A stretch of 59,290 bases of DNA from a virus (lineage: Duplodnaviria > Caudoviricetes): positions 1-59,290 of the IMG/VR virus record IMGVR_UViG_3300025789_000042, one strand, 5' to 3'. The notes beneath the pieces are model-generated. The model did not search any database, was not told where the DNA came from, and saw nothing but the letters and a program-made list of their open reading frames with translations. This document shows, one piece after another, positions 1-59,290 of the stretch. Positions within the stretch are counted from its first letter, which is position 1; each line of letters begins with the position of its first letter. Both the position numbers and the translations under genes were made by a program.

Positions 1-175
1 GCAACTATCGTGCCAGAGTGGCAGCGTGGCCAACTTGGCATGATTCTTGCTAGGGCAACTATCGTGCCAGAGTGGCAGCGTGGCACGCTTCTTGCTTGGC
101 CTAGCAAGTTCTATGCCAGCGGCTGCGGGCTGGCAGGTTGGCACGATTCTTGCATGGCAAGCAAGTTCTATGCCA
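1..175. promoter_or_regulatory. Array of 7 sigma-54 (RpoN) -24/-12 consensus boxes, both strands
   Basis: TGGCAY-N5-TTGC on + at 36-50, 81-95, 139-153 and on - at 1-15, 55-69, 104-118, 161-175; 30-bp exact direct repeat at 1-30/55-84. Confidence 0.8.
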
Positions 176-570
176 GAATGCTTAGGAGGGTGGCCCTCTT
201 TTTTCCGGCCATACCCCCAAAAAGGATTCCAATGGTCCAGCGGGCGGGGGGCCCACTCAGACAGCAAGTTCGTCAAGCCTCCTGTTTACCAAGAAACCCG
301 GACCCTCAAATTTTTTTATAAAATGTCGTCAAGATGACAATGTACTACTTTAGTTAATCGCGGTGTCTGGCTGTTCTAACATTGGCCATGTTAGTGAACC
401 GGTTTGATGTTACGTCGGTGGTTTTTGACAAGTACCGACGCTTTTCTCTAATTAGAACTAAAGTTAATCTGCGCCATGGGTTCGCCTTGTTCCAGTGGGG
501 GGAAATCATAGGTATCCCGACGAAAACAGTATCGGATGTTCAAGCGTTTTAACTCTATCTTTATTTATTT

Positions 571-607
<37 letters not shown>

Positions 608-786
608 ACAATATATACCCCGACACCCATCCTACCCTACACAGTTATTGTCGGGACACCGCATGGAATAAGGGCTGCCGCCAAGTTAACCACGACAAGT
701 AGTGTGTAGGATGTCCACGACGACTGTTTGGTTTTTTCGGAGTTTGCCTCTCAGTTGACGGGATACATTCCTCAATTTTGCTTTTA

Positions 787-825
787 GGGCGATAAGTCGG
801 GGATAAATGTGTTGTTGTATGCAGG
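787..825 (+). promoter_or_regulatory. Putative phage late promoter, copy 1
   Basis: GGGCGA-N14-ATGTGTTGTTGTATGCAGG, same spacing as six other copies; upstream of the TerL operon. Confidence 0.6.
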
Positions 826-850
826 AAGAGTGCAAATTTCAAGGATAACG

Positions 851-1237
851 ATGACTCAAAGAATGAACCCGCAAACCAACCAGCCTTTTAAGCGGGGTGA
901 TGAGCGCGAAGATGGCCGGTTGTTTTATAAGTACACCCGCAGACTGAAGGCGGACGGAACCTATGTTGAGATTTGGCTTGTCCCCGAATCACTTGATCGT
1001 GTCCGCAACAAGGATAAGTCGCTACGGATGGGCAAGTACGTCCGAACTTCTGACCGACTACCTAAAGGGTGGTTGAACATGATTACTGACCCGGAAGAGT
1101 TGGCTTTGTGCCGAAAAGCGTATCGTCAAATGCGCCGCCAACCAGTCACGTTGGAGAAACTCCATGAGACGTTAGGTGATTTCCCCTTGATGGTCAGGTT
1201 GCTGACCCCCTTCACCAGCGATTTCAATGGGGTTTGA
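851..1237 (+). CDS. Hypothetical basic protein
   Basis: ORF 809..1237; ATG 851 preceded by AAGGA; Arg/Lys-rich. Confidence 0.7.
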   Translation: MTQRMNPQTNQPFKRGDEREDGRLFYKYTRRLKADGTYVEIWLVPESLDRVRNKDKSLRMGKYVRTSDRLPKGWLNMITDPEELALCRKAYRQMRRQPVTLEKLHETLGDFPLMVRLLTPFTSDFNGV

Positions 1238-2114
1238 CGCGCGCATCCCGGTGCCCACCACAAAGGGCTGGCTGCCGGCGGGAATGATTCAGGTTGGTGA
1301 TGAGGTGTTCGGGCAGAATGGCCGGCCAGTCAAGGTCACGTTGGTTCAGAAGTACACGCCGCGCAAGTGCTTCAAGGTCTGGATGAAAGATGGCCTGACC
1401 TTGGTGGTAGACGGGCGCGCAGGGATTCCGGCGTACTCCTACATTGAGTTCACCTCGTTGCGGCTGTGGAGCGCCAGCAGGATATTGCCAAGAAAGGGCA
1501 CGGTCACACCCAAAAACGCGGAGAGCATCATGCGCAGAGAGGCGGGCCGCTGCCGCATCCCTGTGTGTCAACCGATCCGCCCCATAGAGGCTGCGCTGCC
1601 AGTTGACCCGTATGTGTTCGGCCAATGGATCATGGAGCCAAGGGAGCGGCGGCGCATGGCCCAGACGACGATCAGCCGCGAACTCATGGAGCGGTATGCG
1701 ATTGTGCCCAACCGAATACCGGAAGAATACCTGTTTGCGTCCTTTGAGCAGCGGCTGGCGTTGCTGAGGGGCATACTGAGCAAGAAGCCCAAATGTTTCA
1801 ACAAAACAACAACCCTGTTCTCTCTGGCCGTGATGGATCAGACCTTGGCCCGGCAGATTCAGAATCTTGTGGAGTCGTTCGGGATGCGCAGTTCCATCGT
1901 CTACAACAAACACAGCTTCTATTTTCGTGTCAGCTTCAGGAGCTTTATGAGACTGATCGAAGATCAGCTGCCACCAAACAAGCCACTGGACCTAGAGTAC
2001 CGGCGCGTCCGGCGCGTGGAAGATGCGCGGGTCAGGGAGTGCGTGTACTTGAAGACTGAAGACCCAGCAAATGCAATCCTCGTCAGCGAGGGATTTATCA
2101 CTTTGATACCATGA
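1227..2114 (+). CDS. Free-standing degenerate intein (Hint + LAGLIDADG-like) protein
   Basis: Block A-like IPVPTTKGW..IQVGDEVFGQNGRPVKV; LPVDPYVFGQW and IPEEYLFASFEQRLALLRG (LAGLIDADG-like); block F/G-like C-terminus without His-Asn. Confidence 0.8.
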   Translation: MGFDARIPVPTTKGWLPAGMIQVGDEVFGQNGRPVKVTLVQKYTPRKCFKVWMKDGLTLVVDGRAGIPAYSYIEFTSLRLWSASRILPRKGTVTPKNAESIMRREAGRCRIPVCQPIRPIEAALPVDPYVFGQWIMEPRERRRMAQTTISRELMERYAIVPNRIPEEYLFASFEQRLALLRGILSKKPKCFNKTTTLFSLAVMDQTLARQIQNLVESFGMRSSIVYNKHSFYFRVSFRSFMRLIEDQLPPNKPLDLEYRRVRRVEDARVRECVYLKTEDPANAILVSEGFITLIP

Positions 2115-3550
2115 CACCAGCACAAGAGAAGATTCTGGCCGACTTTGCGGCCAAAAACAAAGGTTGGCCAAAAGAGGCGCTTGACTTCGCGCTGTGGAAG
2201 GTGCGTTGGCACCTGACCGCCCTCCCTCACCAACGAGAGCCCGAGGACAACGAGTACGATACGTTCTTGCTGTTGGCCGGGCGCGGATCGGGCAAGACCC
2301 ACACGGCATCGAACTGGATCGGCCTGCGCGCGGCGGAGTTTGACAAAACGCGCTGGTTGGTGACAGCGCCAACCTCGAACGACATTCGGGCCACTTGCTT
2401 TGAAGGGGACTCGGGGTTGCTCAACATCGTCCCGCAGTCGCTGATCAAGGACTACAACAAATCGCTGTTTGAGCTTACGTTGAAGAATGGGTCAATGATC
2501 CGTGGCATCCCGGCCTCCGAGCCGGAGCGCTTCCGGGGTACACAGTGGCACGGCATGTGGGCGGACGAGTTGTGTGCGTTCGAGTACATTGACGATGCGT
2601 ATGACCAGATTCAGTTCACGCTCCGTCTGCGCGATCCCCGCATCGAGCGGGTGCAGTCGATCATCACCACCACACCCAAACCCTTGGAGCTGATCACCGA
2701 CTTGAATGAGGGCAAGGTGGGTGGCGATGTGTACGTCTCCCGTGCCAGCTCTTATGACAACCGCAGCAACTTGTCCGCCACGTTCTTCAAACAACTGGAG
2801 CAGTATGAGGGCACCGACCTTGGCAAGCAGGAGATTTACGGTGAAATTCTGGACCCAGAGAACGCGGGTATTGTCAAGCGCAAGTGGTTCAAGATGTGGC
2901 CGGCCAACCGACCAACCCCCACGTTGGAGTACGTGATTGCCTCGTATGACCCCGCCGCGTCGGAGAAAACGCACAATGACCCGACAGCCTGTGTGGTGTT
3001 TGGCATCTTTGAGCGTGAGGACGCCGGCACCTGCGCGATGATCCTTGACGTATGGGACGAGCATTTGTCCTATCCTGAGTTGCGCCGCAAGGTGCGCGAT
3101 GACTACAAGGAAGTCGTTTACGGTGCGGACAACACATTCGCCAAAGGCAAAAAGGCGGACTTGATCTTGCTGGAAGACAAGAGCGCTGGCATCTCGCTGA
3201 TCCAAGAACTCCAAGCTGGCGGTATGCCGGTGCGCTCGTACAACCCGGGCAAAGCGGACAAGGTGCAGCGCATGAACATTGTGGCGCCCTTGATTGCCAA
3301 GGGCAAGGTGTACATCCCCGAAGACCCGGAGAAGCCGGGCGAGGTGGCGCCTTGGGCCAAACGGTTTATCCGCCAAGTGTGTTCGTTCCCAGAGGCCAAA
3401 GGCCACGATGACTACGTGGACGCCTTGAGCCAAGGGTTGCGCATCCTGCGCGACTCAGGCTGGCTCCAGCTCGACCCCCTACCCGACAGGGACTTCCGCC
3501 ACGCAGACGAGATTGCATCCCGCAAAGTCTACAACCCATACGCAGCATGA
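2111..3550 (+). CDS. terL: Terminase large subunit
   Basis: Walker A GRGSGKT, Walker B MWADE, TTTP coupling motif, RNase H-like C-terminus (SYDPA, HDDYVDA). Confidence 0.95.
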   Translation: MTPAQEKILADFAAKNKGWPKEALDFALWKVRWHLTALPHQREPEDNEYDTFLLLAGRGSGKTHTASNWIGLRAAEFDKTRWLVTAPTSNDIRATCFEGDSGLLNIVPQSLIKDYNKSLFELTLKNGSMIRGIPASEPERFRGTQWHGMWADELCAFEYIDDAYDQIQFTLRLRDPRIERVQSIITTTPKPLELITDLNEGKVGGDVYVSRASSYDNRSNLSATFFKQLEQYEGTDLGKQEIYGEILDPENAGIVKRKWFKMWPANRPTPTLEYVIASYDPAASEKTHNDPTACVVFGIFEREDAGTCAMILDVWDEHLSYPELRRKVRDDYKEVVYGADNTFAKGKKADLILLEDKSAGISLIQELQAGGMPVRSYNPGKADKVQRMNIVAPLIAKGKVYIPEDPEKPGEVAPWAKRFIRQVCSFPEAKGHDDYVDALSQGLRILRDSGWLQLDPLPDRDFRHADEIASRKVYNPYAA

Positions 3551-3885
3551 TACACATCCGCAAAGAAGGCCAATCGCTACACATTGGTTTGAATATCTCC
3601 CTGCAAATGACACGCAGAGGTGTCAGCTTGACGCTCATCTGGGCCGGGTACGATGTGGCCCGGCGCAAACTGAAAACGCGCCGGCTTAGGTTTCGATCCT
3701 ACCTGCGTCCGTTTTTCATTGTTGAAAAGCAAGAAGGCGATGTGGTGGACAGCTTTCTGACCCAAAACGATCTGATCGCGGTGCCGCGCGAGTTGCTGGA
3801 GGATCACGCCCCCAAACTGATCCCCTTGGCGGGGTACTTCATGCAGGAATTCAAATCGGGCGTGATTGGGCGCTATTATGGGTGA
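3547..3885 (+). CDS. Hypothetical protein
   Basis: ATGA overlap with terL stop. Confidence 0.6.
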   Translation: MIHIRKEGQSLHIGLNISLQMTRRGVSLTLIWAGYDVARRKLKTRRLRFRSYLRPFFIVEKQEGDVVDSFLTQNDLIAVPRELLEDHAPKLIPLAGYFMQEFKSGVIGRYYG

Positions 3886-6280: not shown

Positions 6281-9075
6281 GTCAAAATCCCCTACTCCCA
6301 ATCCAAGCAGGCGGTAATTTGTCCGCTTTGTCGCATGTTGAGAGCGACAATGAGGACTTGGACAACCAAAAAGAGGTCGAGGCAATCGCTGATGCGCTTG
6401 ATTTGGACACAGAAGACGTCGAGCAAGAGGTAATCGAGCTTGAAGACGGTTCGGTTGTCGTCAACTTCACCGAAACTCAAAAACCGTCAGAAAACCCTGA
6501 TTTTTACGTCAACTTGGCCGAAGAATTGGATGAGGGTGTTCTGGACAACATCGCATTTGAGTATTTGGACCTGATCGAGATCGACCGTGAGTCGCGCAAA
6601 AAGCGTGATGAGCAGTATGAAGAGGGTATTCGCCGCACCGGCATGGGCAATGACGCCCCCGGTGGTGCAAGCTTCCAAGGTGCGTCCAAGGTGGTTCACC
6701 CAATCATGGCGGAAGCCTGCGTGGACTTTGCGGCAAATGCAAGCAAAGAGCTGCTGCCGGCGGACGGCTTGGTCAAGAGCAAAATCAAAGGCGACGTGGA
6801 CACTAGCAAGCTGGCGTCTGCTGATCGCAAGACCAACTTCTTGAACTGGCAGCTGACAGAGCAAATCGAGGAATACCGCGATGAGATGGAGCAGTTGTTC
6901 ACTCAGTTGCCCTTGGGCGGCAGCCAATATTTGAAGTGGCGATTTGACCGCGACTTGAATCGTCCGGCGTCTGAGTGGATTCCGATCGACAACATTCTGT
7001 TGCCTTTCTCCTCGACCAACTTCTACTCCTCAGCGCGCATCACTGAACAGCAAGACATCACTCAGGATACGTATGAGCAGCGCGTCGAGATGGGCGACTA
7101 CCGTGACGTGGAGCTGTTCAAGGCTGAGTTGGACATTGAGCATGTCACCCGCTCAGAGAAGGCCAACAACAAAATCGAAGGCCGGGAAGAACCAAGCAAG
7201 AACGTGGACGGCCTGCGCCGTGTGTACGAAGTCACATGCTACCTGCGTTTGGAAGATGATTCTGTTTCCAAGGGTGCCCGCGCACCATACATCTTGACCA
7301 TTGACGAGCTGTCTGGCAAGGTGCTGGCGCTGTACCGCAACTGGGAGTCCGGCGACACCCGCATGCGCAAGCTGGACTGGATTGTCGAGTACAAATTCAT
7401 CCCTTGGCGCGGCGCTTACGCGATCGGCATGCCTCACTTGATCGGTGGCCTCTCAGCCGCTTTGACTGGCAGCTTGCGCGCGCTGATGGATTCGGCGCAC
7501 ATCAACAACAGCCAGACCTTGTTGAAACTCAAGGGTGGCCGCATCGGCGGGCAGACGGATCGCATCGAGCCAACCCAAGTGGTTGAGATCGAAGGCAGCC
7601 CCGGCGTGGATGACGTGCGCAAGTTGGCCATGCCAATGCCGTTCAACCAACCGTCAAACGTGTTGTACAATCTGCTGGGTTGGTTGACTGACGCAGCCAA
7701 AGGCGTAGTCAAGACAAGCGAAGGCCGGATTGCCGAAACCAACGCCAATGCGCCAGTGGGCACCACCCAAGCGTTGATCGAACAAGGCTCGAAGGTCTTC
7801 TCCAGCATCCACGCGCGCATGCACCGCAGCCAAGCCAAGAGCTTGCAGATTCTGTCGCGCTTGAACTACTGGTACTTGGACGATATGGACAACCAGTCCG
7901 GCGAAGAGATCGAGGTTGCCGACTTTGCGGACAACAGCGACATTAGCCCGGTCAGCGACCCCAACATCTTCAGCGAAACTCAGCGCATCAGCCAAGCACA
8001 GACTGTCATGCAGCTGGCCGGCCAAGCGCCTCAGCTGTACGACATGCGTGAAGTCCACTTGCGCATCCTGCGCCAGTTGAAGGTGCCAGACATTGAGAAG
8101 GTGTTACCAAATCCGCAAGGCGTCAACGAAAGCAACCCAGCGCTGGAGAACGTGCAGATGACCATGGGCACCCATGCCGCTGCATTCCCAGACCAAGATC
8201 ACCTTGCGCACATCAAGGTTCACTTGGCGTACATGGCCGACCCAGCATACGGCGGCAGCCCGCTGATCGCGCCTCAAGTGACACCGCTGATGATGGAACA
8301 CATCAAGCAGCATTTGACACTGCACTATCTGTCATCCATGCGCGCGTATGTGGCCCACGCCGCCGGCGGCGAAGATGCGTTCAAGCTGAATGAAGAACGT
8401 CCGCTCGACAAGGACGCCCAAGAAGCGTTGGCCATGGCCGCGCAGCTGGTCAACCAAGACGCGCAGAAGACATTCGGGGGCATCAACCCAATCATCGGCC
8501 AACTGGTCCAGCAAATGCAGCAAGCCCAGCAAGCCCAGATGCAGCAAGCCGCAGCAAGCGATCCTGCCGCGCAGGCCCTGTTGCAAACACAGATGGCTGA
8601 AACCAAGCGCAAGTCCGAAGAGGCTGTGGCCAACCAACAGCTTGAACGTGAGCGCATGCAGGCCGAGTACGCGGACAAGGTGCGCGACTTGGAAGCCAAA
8701 CTGGCCGAAGCACAAGCGAAGATGGGTCTGGAGCAACGCCTCGCAACGAACGACAACGCCTCGAAGATTGCGATTGCCGACATCAACAACGCTTCACGCG
8801 AACGTGTGGCAGCCATCTCAGCCAAAGCGCAGCTCGACGGCACACAGATGGAGCAACAGCATGCCCAAGAGCTAAATGCCTTGCAGGCAGAGCAAGAGGC
8901 ATACGCAGACCTTCGCCAACACGGCTTGCAAGAAGTACAGAACGAGCGAGACCGCGCGCACCAAGCAAGTATGGCCGCGCAACAACAAATGACACAACAG
9001 CAAACCCAGCAAGCGCAACAAGCGCACGAGGCCAGCATGGCCACACAACCACAACCAACCCCGACAGGAGAATGA
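6277..9075 (+). CDS. Portal protein with long Gln-rich C-terminal coiled coil
   Basis: 932 aa; position after terL; VVHPIMAEACVDF and YKFIPWRGAYAIG motifs; helical barrel-like tail as in P22-type portals. Confidence 0.85.
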   Translation: MSQNPLLPIQAGGNLSALSHVESDNEDLDNQKEVEAIADALDLDTEDVEQEVIELEDGSVVVNFTETQKPSENPDFYVNLAEELDEGVLDNIAFEYLDLIEIDRESRKKRDEQYEEGIRRTGMGNDAPGGASFQGASKVVHPIMAEACVDFAANASKELLPADGLVKSKIKGDVDTSKLASADRKTNFLNWQLTEQIEEYRDEMEQLFTQLPLGGSQYLKWRFDRDLNRPASEWIPIDNILLPFSSTNFYSSARITEQQDITQDTYEQRVEMGDYRDVELFKAELDIEHVTRSEKANNKIEGREEPSKNVDGLRRVYEVTCYLRLEDDSVSKGARAPYILTIDELSGKVLALYRNWESGDTRMRKLDWIVEYKFIPWRGAYAIGMPHLIGGLSAALTGSLRALMDSAHINNSQTLLKLKGGRIGGQTDRIEPTQVVEIEGSPGVDDVRKLAMPMPFNQPSNVLYNLLGWLTDAAKGVVKTSEGRIAETNANAPVGTTQALIEQGSKVFSSIHARMHRSQAKSLQILSRLNYWYLDDMDNQSGEEIEVADFADNSDISPVSDPNIFSETQRISQAQTVMQLAGQAPQLYDMREVHLRILRQLKVPDIEKVLPNPQGVNESNPALENVQMTMGTHAAAFPDQDHLAHIKVHLAYMADPAYGGSPLIAPQVTPLMMEHIKQHLTLHYLSSMRAYVAHAAGGEDAFKLNEERPLDKDAQEALAMAAQLVNQDAQKTFGGINPIIGQLVQQMQQAQQAQMQQAAASDPAAQALLQTQMAETKRKSEEAVANQQLERERMQAEYADKVRDLEAKLAEAQAKMGLEQRLATNDNASKIAIADINNASRERVAAISAKAQLDGTQMEQQHAQELNALQAEQEAYADLRQHGLQEVQNERDRAHQASMAAQQQMTQQQTQQAQQAHEASMATQPQPTPTGE

Positions 9076-41789: not shown

Positions 41790-41863
41790 TGGTCAGGGTG
41801 GCAAGAATCGAACTTGCACTACAAGGTTCCAAACCTCGGCGACTACCACTATCATACACCCTG
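41790..41863 (-). tRNA. tRNA-Pro(UGG)
   Basis: CAGGGTG/CACCCTG acceptor, TT-TGG-AA loop, GTTCGATT T-loop, encoded CCA. Confidence 0.85.
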
Positions 41864-41867
41864 AATT

Positions 41868-41943
41868 TGGCTCCCCAGCGTGGGCTCGAACCACGGACAA
41901 CACGGTTAACAGCCGTGTGCTCTACCAACTGAGCTACTGGGGA
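41868..41943 (-). tRNA. tRNA-Asn(GUU)
   Basis: TCCCCAG acceptor, CT-GTT-AA loop, GCCA end. Confidence 0.93.
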
Positions 41944-41946
41944 ATT

Positions 41947-42023
41947 TGGTTGCGGAGAGCTGGACTCGAACCAGCGACCTTGGGATTATGAGTCCCCTGC
42001 TCTACCAACTGAGCTATCCCGCA
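41947..42023 (-). tRNA. tRNA(CAU), Met or Ile2
   Basis: CT-CAT-AA loop, TTCGAG T-loop, ACCA end. Confidence 0.85.
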
Positions 42024-50399: not shown

Positions 50400-51754
50400 T
50401 TGGTGACGCCTTTCACAATGTCGGCAAACAATTCGCGGCGCGACTTGGCATTTTTAATACTCGCAATCAAGTCAACAAGAACGCCCTCTAAACGGCTGAT
50501 GACGTTATCCATCTCAACCACGATTGGCCAACCGTATTTGGATGCCGCTTGCTGATCATTCAACCCTTCTTCCAAGGCCTTGTTGATCAAAGGAGAGAAG
50601 TTTTTTTGCTCTGACGCGCTGACTGTGTGGAATCGCAAAAACCCTGTGAGTTCCAGCACAATAAAGATCACCGCTGGCGCAAGCACAATGATTGGTAGTG
50701 CTTGAACTGGGTCTAGCAAATCTGCTGCGACATAGGTGATCAGTGCGCCGATCAAATACGCTACGTAAAGAATTGTTCTCATTGTTGGCCTTTCTGTTCT
50801 GGCAATAACCCATTTTCCACATTGTGCAATCTATCCTTGGTTGCCTGATGTGAAGCTTGTTCTTCTTGCAGCTCTCGTTCGAGGCGAAGATTTCTCTCGC
50901 GCAAGAATCGATGCTCCATTTCTAGCTCGTCTACGTTGATCATTTTTCTGCTCCACTAGACAGCCAGTCATCGGCTTCACCAAAGTCGCCGTTTGACATG
51001 CGCGCACGGCTCTCATAAATGTACTTTGGCTCAACGGCGCGCCACGCGGCCTTGAGTTCTTCGTACCTCACAAACGGTTCGTTGACAATGAATACAGGCG
51101 TCAACTCACCATCGTGCTTGATGGAACCACAAAAAATGTCCGGCGCTGTGCCGGACAACTGCCATGCCTTGTAGGCTTTGCGCATCGCCAACCATGCGGC
51201 TCGGACTTGTTCTGTCCATTGTGCCGCGTGTTCGGCAGGCAACCACGCTACCTTACGCTGAAAGTCACTCTTTTCGTGAGGTGTCATTTGAGATGCTTTC
51301 TTTTAAAATTCTTGCAAAACCGAAGCGAACCAATACCGCGAGTCCCCTGCCCGACAAACGCACTGTGGCGTCCGCCGAACCATCGTGGTTTTCTCTGATG
51401 TGCATGACTCGGATGTCTTTGTCCCAATCATGAATGTCTACTTCACTGATCATTCAATTTCTCCTTTTCGCGCATAATGACACCAAACTTCCATTCTAGG
51501 TGCGCCCGCAATGCCACTGTCGCACCCAAGGCTTCTTCAACCGTTAACGTGCTTCCTTTTTCTTGCAAGACATCAAAAAACGCTTCAAGTAGTTCTTTCA
51601 TTTTGTTTCCTTATTTGACTGTTATGTACAAGCCTACGTTGGCCATGGCATAGCTGATGTACATCAGCGCCATGCCCGCGTTGCCCTTGGTGAACTGCTC
51701 CACTGCCACGTAGGCGTAGATCAATCCGGTGAGGATGATTAGGTTGCCGCTCAT
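50396..51754 (-). CDS. Cluster of small hypothetical/membrane genes (50396-50782, 50940-51287, 51265-51453, 51611-51754)
   Basis: Co-oriented ORFs with RBS; two are hydrophobic. Confidence 0.55.
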
Positions 51755-52653
51755 CAGAATAACTCTCGTTTGAGTTCTTTAATGCGCGCCGTCACATAAC
51801 CACTCAACAACTTGAAATTGATTGTTGGATTTTTGAATTCCTTCAAAATTTCCCACATTTCTTCCGTGATGATATCATAGTAGACCGTGTGCAGCAACCG
51901 AGGAATCATTTTGCTGTGCCACCCCTCACCCGTCTCGTTGATGATTTTGGCGTGAACCTTATCGACGAGATGTTGAGTCACAAACTTTTCAGCAATCCGA
52001 GCCTCAATGATGTCGCCAACGATTTCAGTCGCGCCCATTTCTTTGGTGTGGCGCTCTTTGAATTCATTGGTGACGATCTTTGCCCACACTGTACGACCGT
52101 ACTTATTTACAAAGTCGTAGTTTTTTATGACAACGCCCTCGCCAATACCATGGCCGTCTTTAATCAGCACCTTATTGAGTTCAATACTTTTGCTGAACAT
52201 CTCATGGCTGCCGTTTTTGATGGTTTGGATTGGAGCAAGGTAATCGATACCATGGTTGATTAAAGTGTTCACATAATCATCATACTCGTAAAACTCTCCT
52301 GTACGGCGGCTCACCACGTCAAAGACGTAGAACTTGCGCCATGCGTCATCACGGTACGTTTTGAGTGTGTGCGGCACAAGCCATTCGCCATACAAAATGG
52401 CATCAGGGCAGTTCTCAAAAAATGCTTTGTATCTCGGGTCTTCACGCATGTGCGCGTGAAAACCTGCGTTGTCTTCCTCTGAGCTGAGTTCTCGGTTGCG
52501 AGAACCCGCACAGAGAGTGCCGTAGTCGTCTCTCCATATTGAGGCGTTTGTGCCGTCAAGTTTAGGGAAAACGTAGCATGTGCCTATTTCAATTCCCTCA
52601 ACTTCAGCCGTGCCAAACTTCTCGACGTGCATGTACTTTTGAAAGCCGCTCAT
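51754..52653 (-). CDS. ATP-dependent RNA ligase (Rnl2-like)
   Basis: Motif I KLDGTN, YGEW, FDV, EGVVIK, WAK. Confidence 0.85.
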   Translation of the reverse strand: MSGFQKYMHVEKFGTAEVEGIEIGTCYVFPKLDGTNASIWRDDYGTLCAGSRNRELSSEEDNAGFHAHMREDPRYKAFFENCPDAILYGEWLVPHTLKTYRDDAWRKFYVFDVVSRRTGEFYEYDDYVNTLINHGIDYLAPIQTIKNGSHEMFSKSIELNKVLIKDGHGIGEGVVIKNYDFVNKYGRTVWAKIVTNEFKERHTKEMGATEIVGDIIEARIAEKFVTQHLVDKVHAKIINETGEGWHSKMIPRLLHTVYYDIITEEMWEILKEFKNPTINFKLLSGYVTARIKELKRELF

Positions 52654-54812: not shown

Positions 54813-56018
54813 TTAATTTCCTTTCACGCAGAGTACCTGCTTGAGTTGATGAACGACCTCAACGAGATCGGTTTGATTGGCCATCACTTGGTCAATGTCT
54901 TTGTAGCTGGCTGGGATTTCGTCAATGACTCCTTCGTCTTTGCGGCACTCGACTCCCATGGTCTGATCAATGAGATCAGTGAGGGAAAATCGGCGCTTGG
55001 CTTCTGCACGGGACATAGCCCGACCCGCGCCGTGCGAGCAAGAACAGTAAGCTTGAATGTCGCCGCGACCTCGTACAATGTAGCTTCTTTGGCCCATGCT
55101 TCCCGGAATAATTCCGAGATCACCAAGTCGCGCTCGAATAGCGCCCTTGCGTGTAACCCACATATTTCGTCCGAAGTGGTTTTCTTTTTCAACATAGTTG
55201 TGGTGGCAGTTGATTGCCTCCTGTGTGATGGTGAATGGCTTGGTGATCTCTTGGCGCAACGCCGCGATGACCTCTTGCATCATGATGCGTCGGTTCTCAA
55301 GCGCGTAGTTCTGCGCCCAACCCACAGCGGCCATGTAGTCATCAAAGTTCTCGGTGTCTTCGGGGAAGTACGCAAGGTTGTCGTCAGGCAGGGACACAAA
55401 AAACTTCTCCATGTCGCGCTTGGCCAGCCCGATGTAGTGCGTACCAATCATGTTGCCAATGCCGCGAGAGCCTGAGTGCAGCATGATCCACACATCTTGG
55501 TTCTCGTCAATGCAAATCTCAATGAAGTGGTTGCCACTGCCCAGCGTACCGAGTTGGCTTGCGGCCTTTTCGCGGAACTTCTGCATATTATTTTTATACA
55601 AAGGTTGCACCACTGAGTTCATAAATTCCGCATTTATAGGCGTAATCATTTCAAGTTCAACTTCGCGCATATGGTCATGCCCACCACCTACACCCAGTGG
55701 CACGCGCTTCTCGATCTCATCGCGCAGGGGTTTCAAGTTGTCAGGCAGGTCGCTGGCCTTCAATGACAGTCGCACCGCGTTCATGCCACAGCCAATGTCA
55801 ACACCCACAGCGGCGGGGATGACGGCCTTCTCGGTAGCGATCACAGTGCCCACGGTCGAGCCAATCCCTGCATGAACATCGGGCATACACGCTACCCCGT
55901 TTGATGCAATGAATGGCAGGCGCGATAGGTTCTTGAGTTGGGTCAAGGCGCTGGCCTCAACTTCGTCAGTCCAAATTTTGATTGGGCGTGCGCCTTGTTC
56001 TTGAATGACTTGTTTCAT
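54813..56018 (-). CDS. rtcB: RNA-splicing ligase RtcB
   Basis: MPDVHAG, VGVDIGCG, GSGNHF, HSGSRG, HHNY, IPGSMG, SCSHGAGR. Confidence 0.96.
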   Translation of the reverse strand: MKQVIQEQGARPIKIWTDEVEASALTQLKNLSRLPFIASNGVACMPDVHAGIGSTVGTVIATEKAVIPAAVGVDIGCGMNAVRLSLKASDLPDNLKPLRDEIEKRVPLGVGGGHDHMREVELEMITPINAEFMNSVVQPLYKNNMQKFREKAASQLGTLGSGNHFIEICIDENQDVWIMLHSGSRGIGNMIGTHYIGLAKRDMEKFFVSLPDDNLAYFPEDTENFDDYMAAVGWAQNYALENRRIMMQEVIAALRQEITKPFTITQEAINCHHNYVEKENHFGRNMWVTRKGAIRARLGDLGIIPGSMGQRSYIVRGRGDIQAYCSCSHGAGRAMSRAEAKRRFSLTDLIDQTMGVECRKDEGVIDEIPASYKDIDQVMANQTDLVEVVHQLKQVLCVKGN

Positions 56019-57311: not shown

Positions 57312-57981
57312 TCGTTTCTCTCTTTTCTTAACGTATTTTCAAAAGGAGGCCAATGCCAGTCGCTTTTGTCCTCGGGCATTCTGTGCCTGACGCTTACAGT
57401 AGTTTCCGTCACACAAAAACGCTCCATGTTTTTCCCGTCTTCAAAATCAGATATGTCTAGCTCCGTCCACGCTCCTTTTTTCAATAGGATTTTCATTCGT
57501 GGTGCTCCTTAAATGTGAACTGTATTTGACACCAAAAAGATGTCAAGGGCTTTGTGCAAACCTTCGCGGAAGGTTTTGTCGTCGAGAAAACTGTCCAAGC
57601 ATTCATGCAAAAAATCACGGTTGGCTTGACCAATAGTGCGGCCATCTTTAATTTTTAGTTTGTTCATCAGTGCTTGTTGTATGGCGTCTCCGGCCTTGAA
57701 CTCAATCGAACTCATGTCCTCTTTGCAGGCCACCGCCACACCAAGCCCGTGTTCACTAATAAGCGCATAGCCAAGTTTTAAATCTTTCATTCGTGGTGCT
57801 CCTTGAGTTGGTCGCGCCGACCCTCCCAGTTGCAGGTCAGGCAGGTTGCTGGTGAGTTCCAATCATGCGGCTTCATGCTGTGTGAATAATGTTCGCCCGT
57901 GTTCACCATGAACTTTTGATGGTGCTCTGTTGTGACCTCTGAACTGCCACATTGCGGGCAGAGGTGAAATGTTTCGCTCAT
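57308..57981 (-). CDS. Three small hypothetical genes (57308-57496, 57509-57790, 57787-57981; the last a zinc ribbon)
   Basis: AAGGAG RBS; CPQC/CLTC in the last. Confidence 0.6.
57491..57804. repeat. 20-bp direct repeat flanking one gene
   Basis: TTTCATTCGTGGTGCTCCTT at 57491-57510 and 57785-57804. Confidence 0.85.
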
Positions 57982-58526
57982 GTGTTCTTTTCCTTTATGC
58001 CGTGGGCGGCTTCAATGATTTGTTTTTCATAAGCAGCTATAGCCGCATTAAAATTTTTACCATCGTTCATCATTGCTAAGTTATACCCAGCTTTCATGCC
58101 TCGCAAATATGTTTTATCAGCTAATAATTGACCCTCAAGCTCATCCGTTAATTGCTTACGGGGTTGTGGGTGGGTGTAGAGAGGTTCGTAAACACTTCCG
58201 TCAACAGGCTCTGGGGAATCACAAAAGAAAAAACACTTGTTGTGTTCATTCCAATACCTATACGCCACAGGCTCACCCTGCTCTGCCTTGGGTTGTGGTT
58301 GTGGATGTGCGTACTCAATGTCTACACGCAACTTGTCAGCATTGCCGCATCTAGGGCAACGCAGCAAAGCTGTACGGGTTTCAATTTTCACCACGGGTTC
58401 TTGCTTCTCTGCCTCTGCGATGGCTTGGCGCAACCTATTGTTTTCTGCTTTCAACGATTCAACTTTTCTTGCGGATTCGTAGAGCGCCTCTGCTACAACA
58501 TTAAAGTGTTTCATTATTTCACTCAT
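57978..58526 (-). CDS. Hypothetical EPVA/PLYT-repeat family protein, paralogue 1
   Basis: N-terminal ~45 aa nearly identical to 58530..59039. Confidence 0.7.
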   Translation of the reverse strand: MSEIMKHFNVVAEALYESARKVESLKAENNRLRQAIAEAEKQEPVVKIETRTALLRCPRCGNADKLRVDIEYAHPQPQPKAEQGEPVAYRYWNEHNKCFFFCDSPEPVDGSVYEPLYTHPQPRKQLTDELEGQLLADKTYLRGMKAGYNLAMMNDGKNFNAAIAAYEKQIIEAAHGIKEKNT

Positions 58527-58529
58527 TTT

Positions 58530-59039
58530 TTACTCCTTGTTGACGTGCTCATCAAGCCAAGCCTGCACCTCGCCGCCTGACCACATTTTGCGTAGCATTG
58601 TTGGAAACTTCACTGGCTTGCGAATTTGTGGTGCGGGAATTGCCATATCTCCGCAGTTTGGGCACTCAATTTCCTGCCAGTTTGTTTGAAATTTTATTTT
58701 TTTACGCATTTCCTCATGCGCTTTCAACCAGCCAAACGCATAAGCGGTTTTTTCTGATTCTGTTTGACATTCAGGCGGAGCGTTTAAATATGGGTTGGTA
58801 TATAGAGGAACAAGTATGTATTCCTTAGAATCCCCATTTTCTGAATGTTGTTCAGGCCAATGCAAAGTTTTGCTTCCTCCCATTCGATGAAAAACAGCAA
58901 ATGCCACAGGCTCTTGCTGCTCTGACTCTGCAATGGCTTGGCGCAACCTATTGTTTTCTGCTTTCAACGCTCCAACTTTTCTTACGGATTCGTAGAGCGC
59001 CTCTGCTACAACATTAAAGTGTTTCATTACTTCACTCAT
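58530..59039 (-). CDS. Hypothetical EPVA/PLYT-repeat family protein, paralogue 2
   Basis: EPVA...PLYT; FPTMLRKMWSGGEVQAW. Confidence 0.7.
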   Translation of the reverse strand: MSEVMKHFNVVAEALYESVRKVGALKAENNRLRQAIAESEQQEPVAFAVFHRMGGSKTLHWPEQHSENGDSKEYILVPLYTNPYLNAPPECQTESEKTAYAFGWLKAHEEMRKKIKFQTNWQEIECPNCGDMAIPAPQIRKPVKFPTMLRKMWSGGEVQAWLDEHVNKE

Positions 59040-59042
59040 ATC

Positions 59043-59290
59043 TCACTCCTTTATGCCGTGGGCTTTTTCAATAGTTTTGACAATTTGACGCCAACTTGGA
59101 GCCTCTAGGTCTTTTGCTATTTCCCAGATTTGCTCATCCGTCAGCGGCTTGCGTTGTTGTGGATGGGTGTAGAGAGGTGTTGAATTTTTCCACAAATTTT
59201 GAACAAATGCTGGTTGTCGATGGCGAAGATTTGATTCCGTGATTGAAATTTCATCGCCACTTGAGTTGAGCATCATCCATGCCACAGGCT
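59043..59290 (-). CDS. Partial EPVA/PLYT-family protein (5' end outside window)
   Basis: The frame is open to the window edge (EPVAWM...PLYTHPQ..PLTDEQI). Confidence 0.6.
   Translation of the reverse strand, partial: PVAWMMLNSSGDEISITESNLRHRQPAFVQNLWKNSTPLYTHPQQRKPLTDEQIWEIAKDLEAPSWRQIVKTIEKAHGIKE

Follow-up and report, generated by a model that had tools for sequence, protein, structure and literature searches.

A conserved array of sigma-54-type boxes upstream of the terminase genes of a freshwater tailed phage: candidate docking sites for host RNA polymerase

Introduction

Why would a phage pack a recognition sequence of a host sigma factor seven times, on both strands, into 175 nt of non-coding DNA? 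The question is raised by the left end of IMG/VR record IMGVR_UViG_3300025789_000042, positions 1 to 59,290, a tailed-phage contig of freshwater origin (the whole of this 59,290-nt stretch is called the window below). An earlier note, made from the sequence alone, had described there a dense two-way array of boxes of the form TGGCAYNNNNNTTGC (TGGCAY-N5-TTGC), which resemble the −24/−12 element of sigma-54 (RpoN) promoters. The phage that carries the array is a freshwater tailed phage of about 60–68 kb. The array is the conserved core of a non-coding region of about 1 kb, which splits a leftward block of replication and small genes from a rightward block of packaging and structural genes. The reading put forward here, tentatively and on the strength of sequence comparison, is that the boxes may be docking sites for the sigma-54 polymerase of the host, acting by being occupied (as a trap, a barrier or an entry pad) and not as ordinary promoters.

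Array Anatomy in the Window

Exact matches to the box number seven in the window, all of them within positions 1–175 and none elsewhere, on the strands and at the coordinates that the earlier note had reported (Table 1). As a shuffled background, 100 shuffles preserving dinucleotide composition hold a mean of 0.92 boxes and a maximum of 3, and seven boxes are reached in 0/100. When one mismatch to TGGCACN5TTGC is allowed, 16 sites are found against 9.5 expected; the extra 9 are scattered, which corresponds to the chance level.

The strand alternates strictly across the seven boxes, giving three face-to-face pairs and a half pair cut at the contig end. Consequently, the face-to-face pair can be regarded as the unit of the array. 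Only four distinct box sequences are present among the seven, and positions 1–30 and 103–119 are exactly identical to 55–84 and 160–176, respectively; part of the multiplicity within the window is therefore recent plain duplication.

Match to the Sigma-54 Recognition Element

A position matrix was built from 202 unique boxes of the clade, with up to two mismatches allowed. Its consensus is TGGCA[C/T]G-n-[T/A]-T-C-TTGC-T-[A/T], with G in 84% of boxes at position 7, T in 84% at position 12, T in 66% at position 16, and A or T in 88% at position 17. The search pattern imposed neither the G at position 7, nor the T-rich letters before TTGC, nor the A/T preference behind it, yet they agree with the sigma-54 consensus. 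Overall, the motif agrees with the sigma-54 element at about 11 informative positions plus the exact spacing, and the GG (−24) and GC (−12) doublets stand 10 bp apart in 7/7 boxes of the window. The exact form shared by all seven boxes fits only 12 of the 29 intergenic Salmonella sigma-54 sites supported by chromatin immunoprecipitation, counted by eye in the available part of PMC3844500; the extended consensus of the clade was likewise compared with these 29 sites by eye, and it agrees with them.

The placement of the boxes is not that of promoters, which lie upstream of, and point toward, a transcription unit starting about 12 nt further on. In the window the boxes alternate between strands, partners are 4–8 nt apart, and the first + strand gene is 655 nt away. 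No sigma-54 gene and no enhancer-binding protein is recognizable among the large open reading frames (ORFs) of the window with Pfam and PHROGs, in line with the earlier note's statement on enhancer-binding proteins. The domains Sigma54_activat (PF00158) and Sigma54_DBD (PF04552) were found in 0/5 array-bearing viral records (G001–G005, two of them complete), and Pfam and PHROG searches of the flanking ORFs, both those of the window and those of its relatives, gave no candidate binder or activator. According to the part of PMC3844500 that was available, closed sigma-54 complexes are stable without an activator, bacteria contain many sigma-54 sites that are not promoters, and any closed complex can be a target for activators that lack a DNA-binding domain.

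Conservation among TerL Relatives

A scan with TerL, the terminase large subunit, returned 214 related viral stretches, 80 of which were examined; the conservation counts refer to the 31 relatives in which 2300 nt or more of sequence precede terL. The earlier note had suggested looking for similar arrays at this place, and they are there: at least one exact box is present in 31/31 relatives and at least two in 29/31, 0.9–2.3 kb upstream of terL, with a range of 1–8 boxes. In these 31 homologous regions (43 kb), the N5 spacing between the two halves occurs 125 times, the spacings N2–N4 and N6–N8 do not occur at all, and N9 occurs 7 times. As a control, terL and the downstream DNA of the same 31 loci (161 kb) hold two N5 boxes. 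Expressed per half-site, TTGC follows at N5 after 125 of 179 TGGCAY half-sites, leaving 54 lone half-sites.

The invariance of the N5 spacing across relatives argues that it is under selection. This bears out the proposed fit to, and selection on, the −24/−12 geometry, with which the extended consensus also agrees; no homologous array among the 31 regions has lost the GG-N10-GC spacing, a loss that had been named beforehand as counting against the idea. The earlier note had gone further and taken varying spacers with fixed GG/GC positions as a sign of selection rather than simple duplication. The relatives bear this argument out; the window by itself would not, since some of its copies are duplicates.

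Around this constant box the layout is fluid: number, order, orientation and distances differ even among close relatives. Among 83 pairs of adjacent boxes, 32 are face to face (+−; 27 with a gap of 3–8 nt), 21 are back to back (−+; 15 with 7–9 nt), 26 are in tandem on the + strand (++; commonest period 43 nt) and 4 are in tandem on the − strand. The centres of neighbouring boxes are 19–24 bp apart, that is, about two helical turns, which places them on one helical face. At the six variable positions, face-to-face partners agree at 2.3/6, against 3.4/6 for random pairs of boxes. This low agreement, together with the fact that only one of the three pairs in the window folds better than shuffles, indicates that the letters of the box are selected and not a potential to form hairpins.

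The closest cultured TerL relatives, MW202545 (53% identity) and Caulobacter phage RW, contain no exact box; TerL of the Caulobacter phages RW, GB2A, RLK and KcrB is 42% identical. In MW202545 and RW, the two records compared, the gene order upstream of terL differs from that of the window.

Arrays in Other Phages and in Bacteria

The array is not confined to the clade of the window. Scanning viral contigs for the pair pattern gave at least 119 stretches, with a chance expectation estimated as a handful; the paired form of these loci was selected by the query, their multiplicity was not. Among the matches listed, GC content ranges from 30 to 68%, 49 of 119 have at least four boxes in 400 nt, and the stretches range from 4-kb fragments to a 354-kb phage. 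Searches of whole records place most boxes of a phage in one region: 8/9 in G005, 8/9 in G004, 10/12 within 3.7 kb in G001 (161 kb), and 17/20 within 4 kb in G002 (354 kb). In G003, 16 boxes lie between 14.5 and 28.2 kb, and its rightward block includes seven boxes oriented against the genes, several of them right after stop codons. The reversed pattern, used as a control in whole records, gave 0–1 match. Among cultured phages, Vibrio phage D419 (OZ195672; L323; T5-like, 114 kb) has all six of its exact boxes within 4 kb, and the group bearing this cluster comprises D419 and about 290 close records. T5 and YuA contain no exact box.

The window and these phages have little else in common. In tblastn searches (E up to 1e-3), the ORFs of the window had no match in G003 and only two short matches in G001, one of them collagen-like; thus, no shared phage-encoded binder is visible. 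Clustering of the ORFs within 3 kb of the arrays at 125 loci revealed no family present in a majority; the largest were those of TerL, at 56 loci, and of a 135-aa AT-hook protein, at 31. BLAST of the window array against cultured phages gave only short stretches in Vibrio T5-like phages, plus one UNVERIFIED record that was not used; in the same comparison, the L043 module described below had no match and the L012 array had chance-level matches only.

Several arrays have features of their own. In G003 (L326–L328, 23100–28300; 38% GC) and L001 (240–3100), most boxes are accompanied by a second conserved word, ATCCGGAC, 12–35 nt upstream. Strong sigma-70-type promoters are found downstream of boxes in G001 and L043. 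L043 (2090–2160, 2830–2890 and further copies) also contains intergenic modules in which two tandem boxes are followed by two CTGCCATTTTGGCAG palindromes; CTGCCATTTTGGCAG is an inverted arrangement of the TGGCA half-site, and a similar TGCCA-GAG-TGGCA occurs in the window at 11–23 and 65–77.

In bacteria, a four-box array is found at 6776–6950 of L222, a 200-kb contig of a Methylovulum metagenome-assembled genome (MAG), after the genes infC-rpmI-rplT-pheST-ihfA and those of a MerR-family and a cNMP-binding regulator. It is about 2 kb from the contig end, perhaps at the border of an integrated element, and rpoN is present in the same Methylovulum genome. Matches in Leptospira were set aside as look-alikes, being a dispersed repeat with a hairpin that fits the pair pattern. 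This repeat of about 100 nt occurs in saprophytic Leptospira (L216, L211, L249, L273 and others), every ~1 kb on some contigs, and seems unrelated to the phage arrays.

Neighbouring Motifs and Flanking Elements

The sequences accompanying the arrays were analyzed at 155 loci (from L001–L199, with at least two boxes), where "near" means within 700 nt of the array. Exact DnaA boxes number 46 near arrays (199 kb, 0.231/kb) vs. 9 elsewhere (1102 kb, 0.008/kb), an enrichment of about 29-fold, and are found at 21/155 loci. A Fur-like palindrome, AATGAGAATCATT with up to two mismatches, occurs 66 times near arrays (0.332/kb) vs. 53 times elsewhere (0.048/kb), about 7-fold, at 33/155 loci. A/T runs are enriched beside arrays as well. 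Loci with DnaA or Fur-like sites by their arrays include the relatives L141 (3327–3390) and L130 (3451–3470), and also L013, L023, L047, L073 and L080. The available part of the window, whose left flank is missing, contains neither DnaA nor Fur-like boxes.

In D419, the non-coding DNA at 2500–3720 combines boxes, three DnaA boxes and CRP-like TGTGA-N6-TCACA sites (identified by eye). The neighbouring genes bear the annotations "DNA transfer protein" and "DNA binding protein" and are read here as putative counterparts of T5 A1/A2; no annotated neighbour is a terminase.

Two further elements follow the array in the window. Of the conserved GC-rich element, the part GGGGGCCCC lies within 700 nt of an array in 34 loci and elsewhere in 0, and the part GGGTCCCAT is near an array in 26 loci and elsewhere in 1. 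Counterparts are seen in L145 (3745–3810) and, in reverse, in L048 (253–305). Such an element could possibly be a terminase cleavage site or another cis-acting site. The second is an AT-rich segment with a run of 31 A (A31) between inverted repeats. Relative to terL, this segment has the opposite orientation in L145 (3940–4060, with a T29 run), L130, L148, L162 and L142. Two origins would account for this: a small segment able to invert, or inversions that occurred repeatedly.

A consensus scan found no sigma-70-like promoter and one terminator-like site, which is the chance level, and an Rfam scan of window positions 1–1000 gave only a chance-level snoRNA match. The hairpin with a T6 run directly after the last box is a weak candidate for a terminator; in relatives the T run after the array is conserved and the hairpin stem is not.

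Assembly Support and the Truncated Left End

The stretch carrying the array is present in 20 public runs from 20 studies, all of freshwater or pond DNA. The repeats are real, and an assembly artefact, which the earlier note had listed as a possible objection, is ruled out. Public contigs break at 55–84 and at the A run (558–618); because assemblies break inside the array, its copy number is uncertain. A 210-nt public contig, recovered from two runs, leads from other sequence into the repeat with which the window opens. At its last 30 letters it shows an exact + box 4 nt from a − box, which amounts to a fourth face-to-face pair and an eighth box. Since positions 1–30 are identical to 55–84, the junction of this contig at 55 is equivalent to window position 1. 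A pond contig of 1341 nt extends 973 nt past that position. The window is thus truncated within the repeats, and the suspicion that the array reaches beyond position 1 was justified, given the further exact + box of the public contig and a degenerate box in the relative L120. Read depth of an 84-nt unitig (X1, 104 vs. 41; X9, 25 vs. 7.8) was considered as an indicator of copy number and supports no claim: the excess is absent in X12, and the internal 30-nt duplication partly accounts for it.

Proposed Docking and Occupancy, and Rival Explanations

Sigma-54 is the known reader of this sequence, which makes it the natural candidate for the binder. That sigma-54 binds the boxes is, judged from their sequence, moderately probable. 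A universal host factor would be the best explanation for a motif that stays constant across phages without a detectable shared protein, at 30–68% GC, and beside sites for other host proteins. If sigma-54 does bind, the output is rather probably occupancy and not transcription. Occupancy appears the most likely mode because the boxes overlap in both directions, lie on one helical face, and turn over in number and orientation while their sequence is kept; the long distance to the first gene and the lack of a phage activator argue in the same direction.

In terms of mechanism, the host sigma-54 RNA polymerase, or sigma-54 alone, would dock on the boxes and would stay there as a closed complex, since nothing in the phage could activate it. 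Occupancy might then serve in one of three ways: by sequestering the host sigma-54 polymerase, by forming a protein–DNA barrier or landmark where two transcription units meet, or by loading host proteins on DNA that is entering the cell or is handled first. As neighbouring boxes could not all hold holoenzyme at once, the capacity of a sponge would be about half the number of boxes.

Several observations weigh against docking and occupancy. The DnaA boxes and AT-rich tracts beside arrays, together with a cumulative GC-skew minimum at the window ends, have the look of a replication origin, and the location upstream of terminase genes, with a TerL homologue within 3 kb in 56/125 loci, has the look of a packaging site. 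A centre spacing of 19–24 bp is too tight for holoenzyme on every box, and a smaller binder fits the density better. Part of the multiplicity in the window is recent duplication, and the paired form of the loci found with the pair pattern is not independent evidence, since the query selected it. Boxes at promoter distance do exist: a single box in L001 lies 41 nt upstream of an ATG that has a ribosome-binding site, and in G003 − boxes stand 24–47 nt upstream of − strand genes. Isolated intergenic boxes point toward a gene start in 44 cases vs. a gene end in 19, a ratio that depends on crude gene calls with ORFs over-called inside arrays. Finally, rpoN is present in 4/5 array-bearing bacterial MAGs, a count to be read with the fact that sigma-54 is common and that these contigs may be mis-binned phage.

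As a rival explanation, the boxes may be iterons for a phage or host protein other than sigma-54, located at a replication origin or at a terminase site of the cosB or pac type, with the likeness to sigma-54 sites being coincidental. The paired layout, the duplication, the spread among phages and the DnaA and Fur-like company, all of which the earlier note had missed, also fit an origin-like region or one like the injection stop signal (iss) of phage T5. Repeat units of about two turns, on one face and in inverted pairs, recall lambda-type iterons. The enriched DnaA boxes and A/T runs, the A31 tract downstream, the GC-skew minimum, the unvarying position 0.9–2.3 kb upstream of terL in the clade, the AT-hook protein next to the array in 31/125 loci, the conserved GC-rich palindromic element after the array and a box density suited to a small binder can all be placed on the same side. 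What makes iterons a rather doubtful explanation is the constancy of the box: the same recognition sequence is found in phages of 30–68% GC without a detectable shared protein, whereas initiators or small terminases that are unrelated normally have different iterons or terminase sites. An iteron origin has its cognate initiator encoded by the replicon, and here the arrays share neither a detectable protein nor a common neighbour gene family. Of the other features of such origins, phasing and AT-rich tracts are present; DnaA boxes are near the arrays at 21 of the 155 loci and absent from the available part of the window. Moreover, the clusters of D419, G001 and G002 lie among small genes, those of D419 without an annotated terminase as neighbour, and it is improbable that an unrelated site would by chance match some 11 informative sigma-54 positions with exactly the right spacing.

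Another explanation accepts sigma-54 and makes the boxes working divergent promoters, under the control of an enhancer-binding protein of the host or of a phage activator that has escaped recognition; each block, the leftward one and that of packaging and structural genes, would be transcribed from the boxes pointing its way, so that expression would follow a host signal. The motif is identical to the consensus of sigma-54 promoters, the position of the array in the clade of the window and in G003 is exactly that between divergent blocks, single boxes elsewhere stand 24–47 nt upstream of co-oriented genes, isolated intergenic boxes lean toward gene starts by the crude calls given above, a sigma-54-like promoter has been reported in Pseudomonas phage YuA (PMC10914365, available part), and activators without a DNA-binding domain could serve any closed complex (PMC3844500, available part). 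Against these points stand the missing activator domain in the large ORFs of the window and in five viral records, face-to-face boxes 3–8 nt apart that would fire into one another, an orientation make-up that varies freely among close relatives, a leader of 655 nt from the last + box to the first + gene, the seven boxes of G003 that point against rightward genes, and the fact that the YuA fragments contain no exact box. Working promoters are thus an unlikely account of the arrays. Face-to-face pairs could also form hairpins or cruciforms in single-stranded DNA or RNA, serving as a priming signal, a structured RNA or a terminator. Pair 1 folds clearly better than shuffles (z −3.9), and the face-to-face layout is the commonest arrangement (32/83 adjacent pairs). 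However, pairs 2 and 3 do not fold better than shuffles (z −0.7 and −1.5), the poor agreement of partners at the variable positions shows that selection acts on the TGGCA and TTGC letters and not on complementarity, boxes often stand in tandem or by themselves, and Rfam gave no match; such structures are a very improbable explanation.

A wider form of the occupancy reading, speculative and improbable as it stands, can be drawn from the company of the arrays: many unrelated phages may carry a non-coding "host-factor trap", that is, a dense set of consensus sites for host DNA-binding proteins: sigma-54 polymerase in the present array, and DnaA and a Fur-family protein in relatives and in T5. Such arrays would soak up low-abundance host regulators during entry and replication of the phage DNA. 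Sigma-54-dependent envelope stress, RNA repair, motility and nitrogen control would be shut down without any phage protein, possibly host replication initiation too, and the phage DNA itself would be the anti-host effector.

Relation to Known Systems

Bacterial sigma-54 sites, as described in the available part of PMC3844500, share with the array the TGGCAY-N5-TTGC core, the G that follows TGGCAY, A/T after TTGC and the strict one-turn spacing, and many of them are intragenic or antisense, with no known transcript. They differ in being single and dispersed, about 70 per 4.8-Mb genome according to the same text. In contrast, the array described here has 7–9 boxes in less than 250 bp of phage DNA, overlapping face to face; an activator gene is lacking, and so is any gene at the distance expected of a promoter.

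The nearest phage precedent is YuA, in whose record (NC_010116) promoter-trap fragments are annotated "-24/-12 consensus" and for which a sigma-54-like promoter was described by Ceyssens et al. 2008, as cited in the available part of PMC10914365. YuA is thereby a precedent for the possible use of host sigma-54 by a phage that has no polymerase of its own. Like the window, it encodes a family-A DNA polymerase, ribonucleotide reductase and primase. YuA differs in that three single annotated fragments lie in the structural module, with no array.

Phage T5 has untranslated repeat regions, an iss and eight DnaA boxes (Davison, bioRxiv 10.1101/866236, available part). The likeness lies in a large conserved non-coding region of repeats, palindromes and host-factor sites, as described in that part of the source; in the phage of the window the repeats lie in about 1 kb of non-coding DNA. 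In the T5 iss (NC_005859 9540–9740; L325 5541–5740), which is filled with such repeats and with DnaA boxes, the AAATGAGAATCATT-type repeats are the same Fur-like palindromes that lie beside arrays, and they do not seem to have been named Fur-like before. BLAST of one array flank matches the injection-stop region in many T5-like phages. T5 differs in lacking a sigma-54-type box, the clade of the window is not T5-like, and the function of the T5 region is itself unproven.

Clustered, high-affinity, helically phased sites that work by occupancy are familiar from the DnaA-binding datA locus of E. coli, the ori iterons of lambda and the R sites of lambda cosB. These have known cognate proteins and their sites vary by replicon, whereas the site of the array is constant across unrelated phages and equals a host sigma-factor site. 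A literature search found no description of sigma-54 box arrays in phages, only the statement on YuA. From its sequence, the array would seem to join sigma-54 sites and phage host-factor regions in a new form; it is not a proven sponge.

Genomic Setting

The + strand genes of the window span 809–36138 and comprise a split-looking large terminase and structural genes, and the − strand genes span 36185 to the right window end. Products of the leftward block are family-A DNA polymerase, class II ribonucleotide reductase, a DUF2800 nuclease, an Enc34-type single-stranded-DNA-binding protein, an SNF2 helicase, a PriCT-2/D5_N primase-helicase, RNA ligase and RtcB. A complete relative, G005 (68,390 nt; TerL 85% identical; IMG/VR class "direct terminal repeats"), runs colinear with the window and has several kb more of small genes between the leftward paralogue block and the array, which the window lacks. 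The sequence of L120 (TerL 97%) reaches 912 nt left of window position 1; outward from the array, it has the degenerate box, two TATAAT-containing palindromes and then − strand genes from about 220 nt. The layouts of the window, L120 and G005 together show the array enclosed in about 1 kb of non-coding DNA, with divergent gene blocks on either side and terL about 2 kb downstream; the earlier note, too, had placed it between divergent units.

Table 1. Features of the array and its surroundings (window positions; gaps within pairs are counted between TTGC and GCAA)
Feature	Position	Strand	Remarks
Box 1, TGGCACGATAGTTGC on − strand	1–15	−	Right half of a pair; left half beyond contig end
Extra TGGCA-type half-sites, TGCCA-GAG-TGGCA-GCG-TGGC	11–30		Repeated at 65–84; related stretch 129–143
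Face-to-face pair 1	36–69		TGGCATGATTCTTGC at 36–50 (+), 4-nt gap, 55–69 (−)
Face-to-face pair 2	81–118		TGGCACGCTTCTTGC at 81–95 (+), 8-nt gap, 104–118 (−)
Face-to-face pair 3	139–175		TGGCACGATTCTTGC at 139–153 (+) then A, 7-nt gap, 161–175 (−)
Short GC hairpin then T6 run	184–204	+	Right after last box; −8.4 kcal/mol, z −0.09
Conserved GC-rich element	213–270		CGGGCGGGGGGCCC at 241–254; in relatives GGGTCCCATCGG...GGGGCGGGGGGCCCC...CAGCAAGTT, aligned by eye
A31 run in AT-rich stretch	511–660		A31 at 575–605; 25-nt inverted repeats 511–535 / 636–660
First rightward ORF	809–1237	+	142 aa, no family; 655 nt beyond last + box
Packaging genes	1227–3550	+	295-aa ORF 1227–2114, TerL 2111–3550
Block of small paralogous genes	57978–59290	−	Leftward, heading toward missing left array flank

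The DNA of the first rightward ORF is not conserved in relatives of the L145 type. The 295-aa ORF has PHROG matches to the N-terminal part of the terminase large subunit and overlaps the start of TerL (Pfam Terminase_6N/6C; PHROG phrog_15), so the large terminase appears split. The annotation of Caulobacter phage RW likewise has two "large terminase" pieces, and a homologue of the 295-aa ORF in L017 (3995–4969) has a weak LAGLIDADG match.

At the other end of the window, three neighbouring small paralogous genes occupy 57978–59285 on the − strand, for which a family search of the window gave none. In the first two, an N-terminal stretch of about 40 residues is nearly identical (MSE[V/I]MKHFNVVAEALYES...), with CxxC motifs. 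Relatives carry different multi-copy families of small genes in the same place. The RNA ligase (51754–52653), the RtcB ligase (54813–56018) and three tRNAs for Pro, Asn and Met (41790–42023) make up a tRNA-repair kit. In E. coli, rtcB is under sigma-54 control via RtcR.

Biological Meaning

A cell contains few copies of sigma-54, a factor that governs stress, motility and nitrogen regulons and forms stable complexes with DNA without firing. If the proposed reading is true, an array of sigma-54 sites without a phage activator would be a new viral way to engage the host transcription machinery, as a trap, a barrier or a gated switch. If the boxes are iterons instead, their binder would be an unusually widespread phage or host factor. 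Recurrence in at least 119 viral stretches means that the array is no one-off, and it ties the array to the long-unexplained repeat regions of T5-like phages; the cluster in the cultured phage D419 makes the array experimentally accessible.

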